Part shown: one piece after another, positions 46,730-52,531 of the stretch | How positions within the stretch are numbered: position 1 is the stretch's first letter | Layout of the letters: every line of letters starts with the position of its first letter | Source of the DNA: Candidatus Woesearchaeota archaeon | Lineage (GTDB): Archaea > Nanobdellota > Nanobdellia > Tiddalikarchaeales > Tiddalikarchaeaceae | Direction: 5' to 3' | Assembly (NCBI GenBank): GCA_964457955.1 | Contig: CAYWEY010000004.1 | Location: 1,883-65,882 of the forward strand | Length of the DNA: 64,000 bases | Made by a program: the position numbers and the translations under genes | Notes under the pieces: model-generated | Told to the model about the DNA's origin: nothing | Databases searched by the model: none | What the model saw: only the letters and a program-made list of their open reading frames with translations

Positions 46730-47425
46730 TTATTCATCTGTTTCAATAATTCCTTCTTCTTTGAATCTTCCTGCATCTTTTCCATGGGATTTGGTTTTAA
46801 AAAAACCTCCTTTCATTGCAGTGCATAAGTTGTTTTTAACACTTTTTTTAACATAAATCTCTCCTCCTTTCATACCATCTCCTGCGTAATTACCTGCTTT
46901 CCCATTAACTATTATTTTCCCGCCATTCATCCATGCACCCAAGTAATTGCCAGCATCTCCCTGAATTAGTATTGAAGATTTTTTTGTTAAATAAGCTCCT
47001 GCATAATCTTTAACAGAACCATTAACTTTGATGTTGCTTTTTTTTATTCTCCACCCAATCTTGTTTCCAGCGTTTCCTTCTATTTTAAGTTCAGAATCAT
47101 TCATGAATAATCCTGCATAATCACCAACATCACCAACTACTTTCATCTTCCCCTTTAATTCATAACCAACATAATCGATAGGTTCATTATTTGTTAAATC
47201 GATTTCAACATATTCGTCACTACATAATTTATTATTTATTAACGCCATTAAAACTAATCCTGATTTTTTTTCAAAAATCTTATGATTATTGAAGTATTTT
47301 TTAACATCATTTAAATCATAATTTATACTTTCTGCATAGTCTTTCATCTCATTGTATACTCTTCTTGGACTGTTTTCTGTTTTCAATCTTTTAACAAGGG
47401 AATCAAACATAAGATTAAGTATCAA
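46730..47425 (-). CDS. GXGXG-motif beta-helix protein (GltB C-terminal / FwdC-like)
   Basis: Repeated GDxGxYxG units (GDVGDYAG, GNAGNKIG, GSVKDYAG, GDAGNYLG, GKAGNYAG). Confidence 0.55.
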   Translation of the reverse strand: MILNLMFDSLVKRLKTENSPRRVYNEMKDYAESINYDLNDVKKYFNNHKIFEKKSGLVLMALINNKLCSDEYVEIDLTNNEPIDYVGYELKGKMKVVGDVGDYAGLFMNDSELKIEGNAGNKIGWRIKKSNIKVNGSVKDYAGAYLTKKSSILIQGDAGNYLGAWMNGGKIIVNGKAGNYAGDGMKGGEIYVKKSVKNNLCTAMKGGFFKTKSHGKDAGRFKEEGIIETDE

Positions 47426-47541
47426 AAATTCAGACTTATAAACATTACTACTAATGAGTAATAATTTATTTTTTTTTAAGTTGTTGAACTGTCTTTCTGC
47501 TGAAATATTTATTAATCAACAGATTTTAAAAATTATTTGTT

Positions 47542-47949
47542 ATGAAGGTTTTCTGCCTCGGCAATATCCTGCACAGTGATGATGGAGTTGCTGTTCACTT
47601 ACTTCCTGAATTAGAAGAGAAACTCTCGAGTCATGATTTTGTTGAAGCAGGCACGAGCGTGAGCAGCATCAAACTCCCTGATGAAGGAGTTGTTTTTATT
47701 GATGCTGTGTATTCAGAAAAATATAGTGAAGGAAGAGTATTGTTTCTTCATAAAAAAAAAGTTATTGATTTCTTGTCAAGCAAGTCATCGCACGATTTTT
47801 ATCTTAAAGATATTATGCGCGAAGAAGACGTCCTTATTGGAATAATTGTTAAAGACACGAGTTTTGGCGATAAGTTGTCATCATCCCTTTTGTCAAAGAA
47901 GAACAGTATCCTGAAAAGTATTATTAGTTTATTTACCAAAAACTTTTAA
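47542..47949 (+). CDS. HycI/HyaD-family maturation endopeptidase-like
   Basis: CLGNILHSDDGVAVHLL...EAGTS...VVFIDAV matches the GNxxxxDDGxG...AGT...IDA hydrogenase-maturation-protease signature. Confidence 0.5.
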   Translation: MKVFCLGNILHSDDGVAVHLLPELEEKLSSHDFVEAGTSVSSIKLPDEGVVFIDAVYSEKYSEGRVLFLHKKKVIDFLSSKSSHDFYLKDIMREEDVLIGIIVKDTSFGDKLSSSLLSKKNSILKSIISLFTKNF

Positions 47950-47977
47950 AATATCTTTTTTCTTAATTAATTTACTT

Positions 47978-49228
47978 ATGAGTAAGAAATTAAAGAAATA
48001 TTACAATATGAATGCAAGGCCTTTAATTAAGGCTGTTAATAATGACAAATTCAGTGATGAAGAATTAAGAGAATTATTAGAACACGAGAAAAAGAATAAA
48101 GACAGAAAAACAGTGGTTGAAGTAATGGAGAATAAACTGCCGGAAGAAGTTGATGAACTGGAGGAAGCAATTCCTATTGACTGGAAGATTCCTGTTGCTT
48201 TTGTTGCAGGAGTCATAATAACCAGCATTTTCTTCATGTTGTCTGGTGGTTCGGGAGCAACAATACCTCAGAGTGGAAGTCCAACAACAGGTGCAGTAAC
48301 AAGCAGTCCTTTAGTGACACTTACAATATTGAATGATGACGACTGTGCTTTATGCGATGCGAGCTGGGTTTCTCAGAGAGTTGGGATGGATTTTCCTAAC
48401 TTAACTGTTGATTATGTTGATATTAGTTCAAGCAGAGGGCAGGAATTGAAAGAAAATCTTGACATAAATAGTGTTCCTGTAGCTTTTTTTGACGACAGTG
48501 TTGAAGAAGCATCCAACTTCACAAGTTATAGCCAGAATGGCTGGATAGTTCAGGACGGAGAGTACTGGAAGATTAATATGCAGGGAACAAAATTATTGGA
48601 CAGACAACCTACAAGTAAGCCAACAGTGAGTTTATTCGTGATGAGTCAGTGCCCTTACGGGACTATTGCTCAGGAGAATATGGTGCCTGTAATGGAAGCT
48701 TTCGGAGACAGCATAGATTTCGAGATGCATTTCATAGGAAACGTTTTTACTGAAATAGAATGGAATACTATGAGCAGTGAGCAGAAGCAATATTATGAAA
48801 TGTATAATATGTGTGTTGAGAAAGAAAATGGAAAGAAATATTGCAGTCTGCACGGAGAACCAGAACTAATAGGGGATATTGCAGAATTATGTGCTATAGA
48901 ATATTATCCTGATAAAGCACTGGATTATGCATTGAGTTATATTAATAATGAATATGACTGGGAGCAGGCAGTAAGTGACACAGGATTAAGTATGAGTGTT
49001 ATGAGTAATTGCGTGAATGGCAGTGAAGGATTAGAACTTTATGAAGAAGATATTAAACTTGCAGAAGAACTGATGATTGGAAGCAGTCCAACATTCTTTT
49101 ACGACAATACAACCATGAGCAGAGCAAGTCCGGAAATAGCAATATGTACTTTGCATCCTGACTTAAGCGCATGCAGTGATATTTCATCAATAAATACGAA
49201 TACAGAACAGCCGCAGGGAACCTGCTAA
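47978..49228 (+). CDS. Membrane protein: N-terminal SAP/HeH-like 'YYxMNARPLI' module, one TM, two extracytoplasmic thioredoxin-like domains
   Basis: aa 6-53 KKYYNMNARPLIKAVN...ELRELLEHEKKNKDRKTVVEVM. TM at IPVAFVAGVIITSIFFML. Then CALC...VPVAFFDD and SQCPYG...SPTFFYD, i.e. CxxC plus cis-Pro thioredoxin-fold signatures twice. Confidence 0.6.
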   Translation: MSKKLKKYYNMNARPLIKAVNNDKFSDEELRELLEHEKKNKDRKTVVEVMENKLPEEVDELEEAIPIDWKIPVAFVAGVIITSIFFMLSGGSGATIPQSGSPTTGAVTSSPLVTLTILNDDDCALCDASWVSQRVGMDFPNLTVDYVDISSSRGQELKENLDINSVPVAFFDDSVEEASNFTSYSQNGWIVQDGEYWKINMQGTKLLDRQPTSKPTVSLFVMSQCPYGTIAQENMVPVMEAFGDSIDFEMHFIGNVFTEIEWNTMSSEQKQYYEMYNMCVEKENGKKYCSLHGEPELIGDIAELCAIEYYPDKALDYALSYINNEYDWEQAVSDTGLSMSVMSNCVNGSEGLELYEEDIKLAEELMIGSSPTFFYDNTTMSRASPEIAICTLHPDLSACSDISSINTNTEQPQGTC

Positions 49229-49255
49229 AAAAATTTTTTTTATTTTATTTTTTTT

Positions 49256-49441
49256 TTATCCGCCACTAATTACTTTTATCACTCTTACATCATCATTCTG
49301 ATTGAATTCTTCATCCTCCAGAACTATCTCCCCATTCTTAACCACAAGAACTGTTTCTTTGTTAACACCTAATTCATTCAGCAAGTTCTTAACACTATTT
49401 GAATGAATTTTTTTATCTTCACCGAATAGTTTAATATTCAT
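49256..49441 (-). CDS. ThiS/MoaD/SAMP-like ubiquitin-fold sulfur carrier (C-terminal GG)
   Basis: 61 aa ending ...DDVRVIKVISGG, the beta-grasp pattern with a diglycine terminus. Confidence 0.55.
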   Translation of the reverse strand: MNIKLFGEDKKIHSNSVKNLLNELGVNKETVLVVKNGEIVLEDEEFNQNDDVRVIKVISGG

Positions 49442-50361
49442 TTTGCAAAATTAGGGATTACTTGAGTCTTCCTGCTCATTATTCCTTTAATATAAATACT
49501 ATTATTCTCTAGTTCTACATTGAAAGCTTCTTCGAATAATTTTTTCTCCGGACCAACAACTATTAATTCACTTCCTTCCTTAATCAAGTCAGTCACCATA
49601 TTAATGAATATGTCATAACCTTCTTTTTCTGCAGTCTTCTTCATCTCTTTTATTAATTCATTTTTCTTCTCTTTCAGAAACTTTTCCACACCCATCAGTT
49701 TTATCTGATTAACCGCGAGTTTAATATCTCCAGGAAGAGAATATTCCTTAAAATCTCCTCTTATTAATTCTTTGATTGTTTTCTCATCTATCTTAGTTTT
49801 TGCTTTAAACATTGCTTCAGCATGTTCTTCAATATCAACATCCGCTATTTCTGCCAGTTTTTTTGCTGTTTTCTTATCAAGTTCTGTTGTTACTGGTGAT
49901 TTGAACATATCCGTATCACTTATTATTGCGCTTAATAATATTCCTGCAATATTCTCAGGCATTTCAAGCCCGTGGTCAAAATAATAATTAGCCACTATAG
50001 TGCTTGAACTCCCTACTGGTTCAGCATGATACCTTATTGGCTTACTTGTGCATATATTACCTATTTTATGGTGGTCTATTATCTCTATCACTTCCGCATC
50101 ATCTCCTCCGCTGACCATCTGCTTCTTCTCGCCGTGATCAACAAGCACTATTCTTTTTCCTTTAGCACTCTTCAACTCTTCAGGACTTGGTGTCTCAAAT
50201 CTTTCCAGAACAAATTTTGTTTCTTCATCAATTCTTCCTGCACGCGCAGGAATGAAGTGTTTATGTCCTTTAAGTTTCTTAAAATTAGCGAGAGCTATTG
50301 CACTCGCAATACTGTCCATATCAGGATGTTTGTGCCCTACTATATAAATAACTTCTTTCAT
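49438..50361 (-). CDS. ppaC: Manganese-dependent inorganic pyrophosphatase (family II, DHH)
   Basis: Near-colinear match to B. subtilis PpaC: IYIVGHKHPDMDS, LVDHGE, IDHHKIG, AEPVG, LLSAIISDTDMFKSPV, KGIMSRKTQVIP. Confidence 0.85.
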   Translation of the reverse strand: MKEVIYIVGHKHPDMDSIASAIALANFKKLKGHKHFIPARAGRIDEETKFVLERFETPSPEELKSAKGKRIVLVDHGEKKQMVSGGDDAEVIEIIDHHKIGNICTSKPIRYHAEPVGSSSTIVANYYFDHGLEMPENIAGILLSAIISDTDMFKSPVTTELDKKTAKKLAEIADVDIEEHAEAMFKAKTKIDEKTIKELIRGDFKEYSLPGDIKLAVNQIKLMGVEKFLKEKKNELIKEMKKTAEKEGYDIFINMVTDLIKEGSELIVVGPEKKLFEEAFNVELENNSIYIKGIMSRKTQVIPNFAK

Positions 50362-50519: not shown

Positions 50520-51326
50520 TTGATGAGAACAAGTATTCTGTGGGGGCTGGAAAATATTGATGAAGAAATAGAGAGTTTGGAGTGTGAGTTAACAACTGAC
50601 AGCAATGATAATATTATGTTTGTGTATGAAGAGCCGGAAGTTCACGAAAGACTGGTGGAGAAAAGAGAAGAATTAGAGAAGAGTTTGAAAAATTATTGCA
50701 GGCAGGTTTTCTCTTCATTATCAGGTTATGATTATCTTTCTGACAAAATCAAATTATCCTATTTTGATAATGATACTATTTTTTACTACAATCATGTAAT
50801 TAAGTTGAGCAGTGAGTTATATGAAGAAGTTGTCAGTATTGAGAAAGAAAACACTGAATTAATGATTGAACTGGTTAATAATGCTCTAAAAGTCTTAAGA
50901 CCTTGTGTTGTTCTTGACGGAACATACTGGTGCGGAGGAAGTGATTATGAATGGAGAAGGATTAAGGGAGTTAACAAGTTTTTAGGACTTTACGAATCCA
51001 CTTCTTCTGAATACGAAAATATTGTTCTAGTTAATCATGACTTATTCTCAGAAGATTATGCTTTCAGGGAATCCTCGCAAAATCTTGCGCTTGTCAAGAC
51101 TGTTGGACAATTTTCAGATGATTTAATAAATTGTTTATGGAATAATATTAGTCATGCATTGGTGCAGGAAGGAATTATTGTTTCTGACAGAATAATACCC
51201 GAAAATCTTAGTTTTAAAGAAATTACTCCTGAAGAGATTAAGAATATGAAAGAGCTTTTCTGGATTACTAAAAGAATAGGAGAGTATTATCATCCGAATA
51301 AGTTTAAAATATATGAGAAGTTATAA
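50520..51326 (+). CDS. Hypothetical acidic protein
   Basis: 268 aa with no motif recognised. Confidence 0.45.
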   Translation: MMRTSILWGLENIDEEIESLECELTTDSNDNIMFVYEEPEVHERLVEKREELEKSLKNYCRQVFSSLSGYDYLSDKIKLSYFDNDTIFYYNHVIKLSSELYEEVVSIEKENTELMIELVNNALKVLRPCVVLDGTYWCGGSDYEWRRIKGVNKFLGLYESTSSEYENIVLVNHDLFSEDYAFRESSQNLALVKTVGQFSDDLINCLWNNISHALVQEGIIVSDRIIPENLSFKEITPEEIKNMKELFWITKRIGEYYHPNKFKIYEKL

Positions 51327-51332
51327 ATTATT

Positions 51333-51965
51333 ATGAGTAAGGAATCATTGCTTGACTACTGGAGGAAGAGTGGAATAATCACTGATGAAAAAGTTTTGAA
51401 AGCTTTTAAGGAAGTTCCTAGAGAAGATTTTGTTCTTGAAAAAGATGGTGATGCTGCTTACGCCGACCACCCATTACATATAGGTGGTGGCCAGACAATA
51501 AGCCAACCCACTACAGTTATGATTATGACTCAGGCTCTTGAACTAAAGGAAGGTATGAAAGTACTGGAAGTAGGTGCTGGAAGTGGTTATCAGGCAGCAC
51601 TTATTTCAAGAATAATAGGGAGTGAGGGGAGAATAATTACTGTTGAGTTTTTAGAATCATTATATTCTTTTGCTAAAAAAAATCTTAAGGATTGCTCGAA
51701 TGTTAAAGTAGTTAAGGGTGACGGGAGCAAGGGTTATGAAAAAGAAGCGCCTTATGACAGAATAATCGTGACTTGTGCGGCTCCAAGTATTCCTCCTCCA
51801 TTGTTTGAGCAGTTAAGAATGAAGGGTATAATAGTCATACCTGTAGGAAGTTTGTACACTCAGAAAATGATAAAAGCAAAAAAAACAAAAAAAGGAATTG
51901 ATAAGAAAGATTTAGGTTCTTTCGCATTCGTGCCTCTCAGAGGAGAGTATGGTTTCAAAACTTAG
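51333..51965 (+). CDS. pcm: Protein-L-isoaspartate O-methyltransferase
   Basis: VLEVGAGSGYQAA SAM motif I in the PIMT context. 210 aa. Confidence 0.85.
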   Translation: MSKESLLDYWRKSGIITDEKVLKAFKEVPREDFVLEKDGDAAYADHPLHIGGGQTISQPTTVMIMTQALELKEGMKVLEVGAGSGYQAALISRIIGSEGRIITVEFLESLYSFAKKNLKDCSNVKVVKGDGSKGYEKEAPYDRIIVTCAAPSIPPPLFEQLRMKGIIVIPVGSLYTQKMIKAKKTKKGIDKKDLGSFAFVPLRGEYGFKT

Positions 51966-52186
51966 AAAAAACCTTTCTTTTTCTTCTTTTTTGGACTGAA
52001 CAAAACCATTAATAATATGAAGATTGGTATTCCAACAACTGACAATATTAGAAGCATTAAGAATAGTCTCACCACCATTATATCAATACCTGTCTGTTCA
52101 CTTATTGGTTTTGAAATTCCCAGAAATAATTTGTTTTCTTTCTTTATTTTTCTAGCCTTTTCTTTTAATGGTTCAGGCTTCAACAT
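51962..52186 (-). CDS. PspC-domain small membrane protein
   Basis: GIDIMVVRLFLMLLILSVVGIPIFILLMVLFSP fits the PspC pattern GID..VRL.F.LL...G...I.L....P. Confidence 0.4.
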   Translation of the reverse strand: MLKPEPLKEKARKIKKENKLFLGISKPISEQTGIDIMVVRLFLMLLILSVVGIPIFILLMVLFSPKKKKKKGFF

Positions 52187-52219: not shown

Positions 52220-52531
52220 TTAAGTCATTTCTTCTTTTATTGCTTCAATAACTGTCTTACGATTCTTATTCTTTTTCTCGTGTTCTAATAATTTCTTCAA
52301 TTCTTTCTTACTTAATTCTCCTTTATTAACCTCTTTAATTAATGGGCGTGCATTCATTCTGTAATATTTTTCAAGTCCAGATATTTCTTCTTTTATTGCT
52401 TTAATTACTGTTTTTCTGTTTTTGTTCTTTTTTTCATATTCAAGCAGTTTTTTTAATTCCTTATCTTTTAATTCTTTGTTTTTGATTTTATTAATTAACG
52501 GTCGAGCGTTCATTTCATAGTATTCTTTCAT
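52220..52531 (-). CDS. Tandem-duplicated SAP/HeH-like 'YYxMNARPLI' module protein
   Basis: Two copies, KEYYEMNARPLINKIKNKELKDKELKKLLEYEKKNKNRKTVIKAIKEE and EKYYRMNARPLIKEVNKGELSKKELKKLLEHEKKNKNRKTVIEAIKEE, that are paralogous to aa 6-53 of the 47978 protein. Confidence 0.55.
   Translation of the reverse strand: MKEYYEMNARPLINKIKNKELKDKELKKLLEYEKKNKNRKTVIKAIKEEISGLEKYYRMNARPLIKEVNKGELSKKELKKLLEHEKKNKNRKTVIEAIKEEMT

Follow-up and report, generated by a model that had tools for sequence, protein, structure and literature searches.

A membrane-anchored Trx/GILT-type protein of a DPANN-type archaeon with a widespread three-helix module on its predicted cytoplasmic tail

The gene and its membrane anchor

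Here we examine a 64,000-nt stretch of DNA (the window; G+C about 31%) and, within it, the open reading frame (ORF) 47978-49228 on the forward (+) strand, which a first-pass annotation had described as a membrane protein joining a DNA-binding module to two external thioredoxin-like domains. The ORF is complete in the ORF listing and encodes 416 amino acids (aa), arranged as an N-terminal module, an acidic linker, a transmembrane (TM) anchor, a thioredoxin (Trx)-like CxxC domain, a GILT/DsbA-like domain and a C-terminal Cys. On balance, we favor the view that the product is an extracytoplasmic thiol-disulfide oxidoreductase, held in the membrane of a DPANN-type archaeon whose lineage acquired a cytoplasmic docking module. 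The gene is real, as first annotated: an identical protein is on record in NCBI (P0001), and an independent Logan assembly (run SRR7048220) is 100% identical across window positions 46978-50228, the identical protein included, so an error confined to one assembly does not explain the fusion of the module to the Trx/GILT part. An A/T-rich element read directly from the sequence, TTTTAAAATAT (47944..47954, +), lies about 29 nt before the ATG; it may be an archaeal TATA box giving rise to a leaderless or short-leader mRNA, in which case M1 would be favored as the start.

Between the module and the membrane lies an acidic juxtamembrane linker, PEEVDELEEAIPIDWK (about aa 55-70; 48140..48184, +), with a net charge of -6; the segment IPIDWKIPVAF of this region is kept in the homologues P0002 and P0003. 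The TM helix that follows (about aa 70-92; 48185..48253, +) is of the signal-anchor type, with a Kyte-Doolittle peak of 2.3 at aa 71-89 and a helix at aa 73-89 in the AlphaFold2 (AF2) model, and it is the only hydrophobic segment of the whole protein, in agreement with the one TM helix first proposed. We are fairly confident in reading the protein as an extracytoplasmic oxidoreductase of type II topology (N-in, C-out), with the Trx-type domains probably external. This orientation is suggested by the N-termini of homologues, some of which have a short basic tail ahead of a signal-anchor and others a signal or lipoprotein-like sequence, by a fold (GILT/DsbA) that is that of extracytoplasmic oxidoreductases, by the position of all four N-x-S/T sequons C-terminal to the TM helix, and by other membrane proteins that also have the module at their cytoplasmic ends.

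Probable external thiol-disulfide domains

Homologues of the Trx/GILT protein comprise P0002-P0032, and the conservation figures given here come from a 30-sequence alignment. The AF2 model, built with 30 homologues, exceeds 90 in predicted local distance difference test (pLDDT) score over about aa 110-410. Domain 1 (about aa 111-205; 48308..48592, +) is modelled with a beta-alpha-beta-alpha-beta topology. Its CALC motif (aa 123-126; nt 48344-48355) stands after strand beta-1, and C123 and C126 are at least 90% conserved, while the cis-Pro candidate P167 is invariant. Pfam matches of this domain to the Trx family and glutaredoxin are sub-threshold (E 0.02-0.18); the placement of the CxxC, the proline candidate and the modelled fold are those of a Trx-like domain.

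Domain 2 (about aa 212-405; 48611..49192, +) is modelled as a thioredoxin fold with a helical insertion. It matches Pfam GILT (PF03227) at 24.8 bits over aa 217-315, against a gathering cut-off of 22.4. A Foldseek comparison of the AF2 model with the PDB, which had been suggested as a check on the Trx-like domains, ranks mouse GILT (6nwx) first (E=1e-7, target-normalised TM-score 0.75), followed by a long list of DsbA structures (for example, 3bci at 5e-7). Residues C225, P226, G228, H292, G293, C305, C345, S370, C390 and C399 are invariant in the alignment. In the SPT motif (aa 370-372), P371 and T372 are conserved at 90% or more, and the proline is presumably in the cis conformation. The active site is monothiol: it reads C225-P-Y-G (aa 225-228; nt 48650-48661) here and CP[YF]G in the homologues, none of which has a second Cys at this motif. 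The initial description of two domains, each with CxxC plus cis-Pro, is thus only partly accurate; both Trx folds and both cis-Pro candidates (P167 and P371) stand, but the only CxxC is C123-A-L-C126.

The protein closes with a low-complexity tail (49193..49225, +) that ends in G-T-C, with G414 and C416 at least 90% conserved. This ending is a family trait: the C-termini of P0002-P0030 show a conserved G-S/T-C after a Ser/Gly/Thr-rich tail, homologues ending in ...GSC. Because the GILT-like domain has one active-site Cys, C416 might serve as its resolving partner. Larger relatives (520-620 aa) contain two GILT-like domains.

Overall, the resemblance to the GILT/DsbA family covers the Pfam score, the best fold matches, the helical insert, the conserved cis-Pro motif and the probable extracytoplasmic location. 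The protein differs from that family in its CPYG site, which replaces CxxC, in the separate Trx-like CxxC domain that precedes it, in the family-conserved C-terminal G-S/T-C and in being held in the membrane by a TM helix near its N-terminus, ahead of which stands a structured, probably cytoplasmic tail. Most likely, the two external domains would form, reduce or shuffle disulfides in surface or secreted proteins, with the CxxC domain as the likely redox centre; the CPYG domain and the C-terminal Cys could, speculatively, act as a monothiol or tail-resolved partner. The catalytic part is in this sense ordinary, of DsbA/GILT type, and represents a monothiol CPYG branch that has been little studied and in which the C-terminal Cys is conserved.

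The tail module as a conserved domain

The cytoplasmic tail consists largely of a three-helix module of about 45 residues (aa 6-57; 47993..48148, +; hidden Markov model (HMM) match E=4e-31). Its sequence follows the motif F-x3-EL-x2-LL-x8-RK-x2-V, and two tandem copies in ORF 52220-52531 on the reverse (-) strand fit L-x3-EL-x2-LL-x8-RK-x2-I exactly, so that the pattern proposed by the first-pass annotation is present, with F for the first L in the Trx/GILT protein itself. These are the three copies in the window, with local HMM E-values of about 1e-31, far beyond chance. They are 48-61% identical in protein, and at the DNA level the module of the Trx/GILT gene shares 79.5% identity with a copy that lies 4 kb from it. 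Conserved residues are encoded by different synonymous codons in different copies, with the peptide kept (for example, Arg as AGG, CGA or CGC and Pro as CCT, CCG or CCA), indicating purifying selection on the module peptide.

Beyond the window, 1.84 billion cluster representatives were searched with a three-copy profile and no word index, which returned 74 matches at E<1e-3, 12 of them at E<1e-10; a word-indexed search with the same profile had P0033 as its sole match. A first scan of genome contigs found no match, and later scans of genomes and metagenomes, made with narrow back-translated patterns, recovered eight loci in all (four each). An alignment of 82 family members (A4) has the consensus Y...NA..vi..i....LS..EL..LL..E...KNRKTV..AI...L, in which the Arg is invariant and Leu and Glu are near-invariant; members of the DPANN branch have their own N-terminal signature, YY.MNARPLI. 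Modelled by AF2 with A4, a 54-aa query forms helices at residues 9-17, 23-35 and 40-49 after a short N-terminal helical turn (mean pLDDT 86). Taken together, the alignment and the model describe an autonomous conserved domain.

Relatives in bacteria and eukaryotes

Several bacterial relatives of the module (P0114, P0140, P0143 and P0147) carry precomputed annotations as PF26450 (DUF8129), and the A4 profile matches them at E 4e-13 to 1e-10. Among the 1.84 billion representatives, the three-copy profile matches P0045 (9e-10), P0091 (3e-4) and P0105 (8e-4). Additionally, P0109, P0053 and P0049 match positions 146-196 of NCBIfam NF033649 (‘lipid droplet-associated protein’, Rv1109c type), and the double-module ORF 52220-52531 (-) matches NF033649 at 2.7e-5. 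DUF8129, the C-terminal 50 residues of NF033649 and the module share the signature Y..(L/N)(T/A)v.ei...l..LS..EL..h..YE...KNR.Th...I...L, a profile-level similarity by which the window module appears to be a distant relative of the DUF8129/Rv1109c C-terminal superfamily. Differences from DUF8129 are that the window copy is linked to it transitively, through PF26450 annotations marked weak, and that the YY.MNARPLI signature is peculiar to the DPANN branch. The first-pass statement that this is not a described family therefore needs amending, since bacterial relatives carry the DUF8129 label and match the NF033649 C-terminus; it holds in so far as neither entry has an assigned function. In the literature on PF26450, DUF8129, Rv1109c and DPANN ribosomal-protein extensions, we found nothing about the module domain.

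A eukaryotic branch may also exist. The best match of the 82-sequence profile among PDB sequences is human STEEP1/CXorf56, residues 175-222 (8c6j chain j), at a marginal hmmsearch E-value of 0.009, and hhalign of the module with the STEEP1 C-terminus, whose sequence was verified, gives a probability of 76%. STEEP1 occurs in C* spliceosomes, where only aa 28-120 have been placed in the structure (PMC9984181). The region shares the pattern Y..NA..I...L....hS...L.EL.E.E..K with the module and differs in having Lys where the module has its invariant Arg; residues 175-222 are unmodelled in the spliceosome structure. The STEEP1 C-terminus may thus be a eukaryotic member of the family. Other Pfam and NCBIfam matches of the module (for example, S_100, SAC3, bZIP_Maf and HTH_ParB) are sub-threshold and were set aside as chance, including HTH_ParB in P0036, which reaches 21.8 bits against a cut-off of 22.6 by summation over three repeats.

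Fusion partners of the module

In DPANN-type archaea, with the partners assigned by Pfam, the module occurs as two C-terminal copies on ribosomal protein uS3 (P0037), on ribosomal protein eL31 (P0043), as two copies on RNA polymerase subunit A''/Rpb1 domain 5 (P0039), and on KaiC-like (KaiC/RecA-like) ATPases (P0059 and P0081). It also accompanies a DUF5752 protein (P0042) and membrane proteins, namely a YgaP-like TM domain (P0040), a 4-TM protein (P0050) and PspC proteins (P0044 and P0101). Two further architectures were read by eye, Pfam detecting neither partner: a CxxC-rich N-terminal region followed by three copies (P0036), and three or four copies followed by a C-terminus resembling a helix-turn-helix (P0035 and P0038). 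A single Undinarchaeota genome has eight copies in three proteins. Lys-rich linkers often adjoin the module in DPANN proteins.

Among bacteria, tandem copies stand at the C-terminus of the Rv1109c-type ‘lipid droplet-associated’ proteins (the NF033649 146-196 region), and the module is joined to Phasin_2 (L006) and to DUF2795 (P0073); many bacterial module proteins are stand-alone, at 46-90 aa, and some of these bear the PF26450 annotation. Phage versions correspond to phrog_22690 and phrog_1983, both function-unassigned in PHROGs, and the phage-like proteins of the P0077 type have no relatives in the phage collection. The family is thus widespread, across DPANN, Actinobacteria, other bacteria, phages and possibly STEEP1, and is catalogued only as a DUF. 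In the databases searched, the module-Trx architecture forms one cluster with one member, so that the tail fusion to a Trx/GILT enzyme appears unique to this lineage.

Some bacterial proteins of large size and high Ala, Gly, Pro and Arg content (P0041, 1381 aa; P0052, 771 aa) consist of 7-15 tandem divergent module copies with Ala/Pro-rich linkers. Another protein of this composition, P0089 (294 aa; probably actinobacterial), has N-terminal TM segments, two modules and a histone-H1-like tail of AKKA/PAKK repeats.

Possible docking to nucleoprotein or to other proteins

The module is non-catalytic, and we think it most likely that it would dock its carrier either to other proteins that bear the module or to nucleoprotein, such as the ribosome, RNA polymerase or the nucleoid, a role suggested by its fusion partners. 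Of these two targets, nucleoprotein is a tentative choice, to which we would give somewhat less than an even chance. Consistent with it are the partners uS3, eL31, RNA polymerase A'' and KaiC-like ATPases, the CxxC-rich and helix-turn-helix-like regions read by eye in the multi-copy proteins P0036, P0035 and P0038, the Lys-rich linkers, the bacterial Phasin_2 fusion and the exchange with HeH/Rho_N domains in phage proteins described below. Charge weighs against it: across 130 module instances, net charges run from -8 to +11 (median -1), only 42% being positive, all four copies in the Undinarchaeota protein P0035 are negative, and the copy studied here has a net charge of 0 in a tail of -2 overall. 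The enzymatic side of the preferred interpretation has its own difficulty, in that domain 2, having no second active-site Cys, may not be a classical oxidoreductase. A variable and often negative charge makes a general nucleic-acid-binding surface on the module doubtful, and generic electrostatic DNA binding was set aside as weakened by the same survey.

The alternative that survives best takes the module for a pure protein-protein or self-association three-helix bundle, which would cluster its carriers or recruit a common partner without touching nucleic acid. The charge survey speaks for it, as do the conserved residues, which form a buried-looking hydrophobic pattern plus an E...NR.T turn, and the occurrence of tandem arrays of 2-15 copies with promiscuous terminal fusions, typical of adaptor domains. 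It accounts less well for the enrichment of nucleic-acid machines among the partners and for the module's occupying the HeH/Rho_N position in phage proteins, and we consider it rather unlikely, while rating it above the other alternatives.

If docking to nucleoprotein is true, it would explain the positioning of some granule, membrane and capsid proteins; if docking is false, the fusion studied here is routine lineage-specific domain accretion. The fusion partners and the phage interchange in any case provide a testable hypothesis for DUF8129-type domains. A far bolder extension, which we regard as improbable, makes the module a shared DPANN address tag on uS3, eL31, RNA polymerase A'', KaiC-like ATPases and the cytoplasmic tails of PspC, YgaP-like and Trx/GILT membrane proteins, with soluble multi-copy proteins (the double module of the window and the 3-4-copy Undinarchaeota proteins) as multivalent connectors. 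Such a system would physically couple transcription, translation and the membrane in very small cells, and the bacterial (phasin and lipid-droplet) and phage versions would dock cargo onto nucleoid or nucleoprotein.

Relation to SAP, HeH and Rho_N domains

The first-pass annotation had identified the module as a SAP/HeH/Rho-N-like domain, and a corresponding explanation is that it is a divergent member of this group that would bind DNA and so anchor the chromosome at the membrane. The motif does resemble the SAP/Rho_N pattern, and the module is like SAP, HeH, LEM and Rho_N domains in its size, in standing at protein termini, in its pattern of abundant Leu, Glu and Lys and in being often joined to proteins that act on nucleic acids. 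In a MAFFT alignment, moreover, helices 1 and 3 of the module can be matched to the HeH helix pair, and some actinobacterial proteins of the P0089 type combine a TM segment, modules and an AKKA tail; P0089 would seem to approach a membrane-tethered DNA binder more closely than the Trx/GILT protein does.

The searches argue otherwise. Window copies have no Pfam match at E<=10 to SAP, HeH, LEM or Rho_N (PF02037, PF12949, PF03020 and PF07498), and none of these is among the 25 most-matched Pfam families listed for the 82 members, weak matches included; as positive controls, Javan90 HeH scored 33.7 bits and Javan407 Rho_N 28.9 bits. By hhalign, A4 matched 11 SAP, LEM, HeH and Rho_N sequences (entered by hand) at 0.1-4.6% probability, and the module matched two real phage HeH C-termini at about 1%. 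Searches of PDB sequences with the 3- and 82-sequence profiles returned no SAP, Rho or LEM chains, the marginal STEEP1 match being the only one, and the PHROG families matched by the module and by HeH domains are disjoint sets. Foldseek of the module model gave nothing below E=4.6, and the model itself appears to have three helices and a short (4-residue) turn rather than a helix-extension-helix; folds this tiny are hard for any search to recover, so that the fold evidence does not refute a relationship. The module further differs from these domains in its invariant Arg and near-invariant Glu (YE..NKNR.T) and in having no SAP loop Gly, and the copy studied here is neutral, with an acidic linker. 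The proposed identity is therefore not upheld, and we judge a DNA-binding SAP/HeH/Rho_N domain that tethers the chromosome to be an improbable explanation.

The first-pass annotation also drew a parallel with eukaryotic inner-nuclear-membrane HeH/LEM proteins. In Heh1/2 and MAN1, a LEM/HeH domain at the N-terminus is combined with two TM segments and a winged-helix (MSC) domain. The window protein has no HeH/LEM match, one TM segment and a Trx/GILT ectodomain, so the resemblance is one of architecture only.

One indirect point in favor of the first-pass reading comes from a phage protein family encoded directly after the major capsid gene, the members of which share an N-domain called ‘Arc-like repressor’ in PHROGs. 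These proteins differ in their C-terminal domain: D4446, Taco and vB_BhaS-171 lack one, Javan90 and Javan407 have a bona fide HeH/Rho_N domain there, and P0056 and P0063 have the module studied here. The corresponding small-protein loci are L012 2501-2794, L015 401-682, L013 1498-1683, L014 1501-1653 and L016 401-553. The swap of module and HeH/Rho_N at one position suggests a similar job and does not imply homology. The phage small protein is also labelled ‘transcriptional terminator’ in databases; because it sits in the head gene block, both the ‘repressor’ and the ‘terminator’ labels are doubtful.

Local acquisition of the module and neighboring genes

The closest relative of the Trx/GILT protein is labelled Nanoarchaeota, and the gene content of the window is archaeal. 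Around the Trx/GILT gene are genes for an Orc1/Cdc6-like protein (assigned by eye and by synteny with L001), a SAMP2/ThiS-like protein and a DHH phosphoesterase, with STT3/AglB-like and PCMT-like neighbors assigned through L001 synteny. In L001, a Nanoarchaeota contig (GCA_016931175.1), the gene order is largely conserved (Trx/GILT, DHH phosphoesterase, PCMT, PspC, Cdc6, SpoIIM and STT3). Its Trx/GILT protein (P0002, 46% identical) and its PspC protein have Lys/Arg-rich N-terminal tails and no module, whereas the window has the module at both positions, fused in the Trx/GILT protein and as a separate 103-aa ORF for PspC. It follows that this lineage acquired the module on at least two membrane-protein cytoplasmic tails. 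In the interpretation that we favor, an oxidoreductase with an acquired docking module, the Lys/Arg-rich tail of the relatives would have been replaced here by a single copy of a three-helix domain of 45 residues that has been amplified locally.

The 103-aa ORF (52220..52531, -) has two tandem modules and a net charge of +13, and it ends in TAA (52222-52220), in frame with the downstream gene for a 74-aa PspC-domain membrane protein (51962..52186, -; Pfam PspC score 28 bits, cut-off 25), which starts 11 codons past the stop. Reading this TAA as a sense codon was rejected, as TAA is the commonest stop of long window ORFs (25 of 43). The arrangement instead looks like the fission of a module-PspC fusion, or a nonsense or sequencing change. 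Fission is suggested by the module-PspC fusions of other DPANN (P0044 and P0101), in which a small membrane protein likewise bears the module at its N-terminal, cytoplasmic end and of which the window equivalent is 52531-51962 (-). They differ from the window in that its parts are split by the in-frame TAA, and their partner is PspC rather than the Trx/GILT ectodomain.

Lastly, the module could be a neutral passenger of intragenomic duplication and the tail only a spacer or topogenic segment, as the 79.5% DNA identity to the nearby copy, the simple K-rich tails with which the closest orthologues manage and the single-member module-Trx cluster might suggest, but this is a poor prospect given that the peptide is kept despite synonymous divergence, that the pairing of module and membrane protein recurs independently (PspC, YgaP-TM and P0050), and that a net acidic tail is a poor positive-inside signal.

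Some smaller ORFs lie in the same region. The very basic double-module ORF is preceded on its own strand, at a distance of about 45 nt, by a 26-codon ORF, MKFYEFEDDEDYDDEDDDEDDDLEDY (52656-52576, -), with a net charge of about -17 and a GGAGGT Shine-Dalgarno-like motif before it; this small ORF could encode a partner or neutralising peptide or be a chance ORF. Between the DHH phosphoesterase and PCMT genes lies a 268-aa ORF (50520-51326, +) with no Pfam match; it is absent from the otherwise syntenic L001, pointing to a lineage-specific insertion. Following the Trx/GILT gene is a 61-aa SAMP2/ThiS-like ubiquitin-fold ORF (49256-49441, -), the syntenic position of which in L001 (6303-6560) is occupied by an unrelated 85-aa ORF on the other strand.

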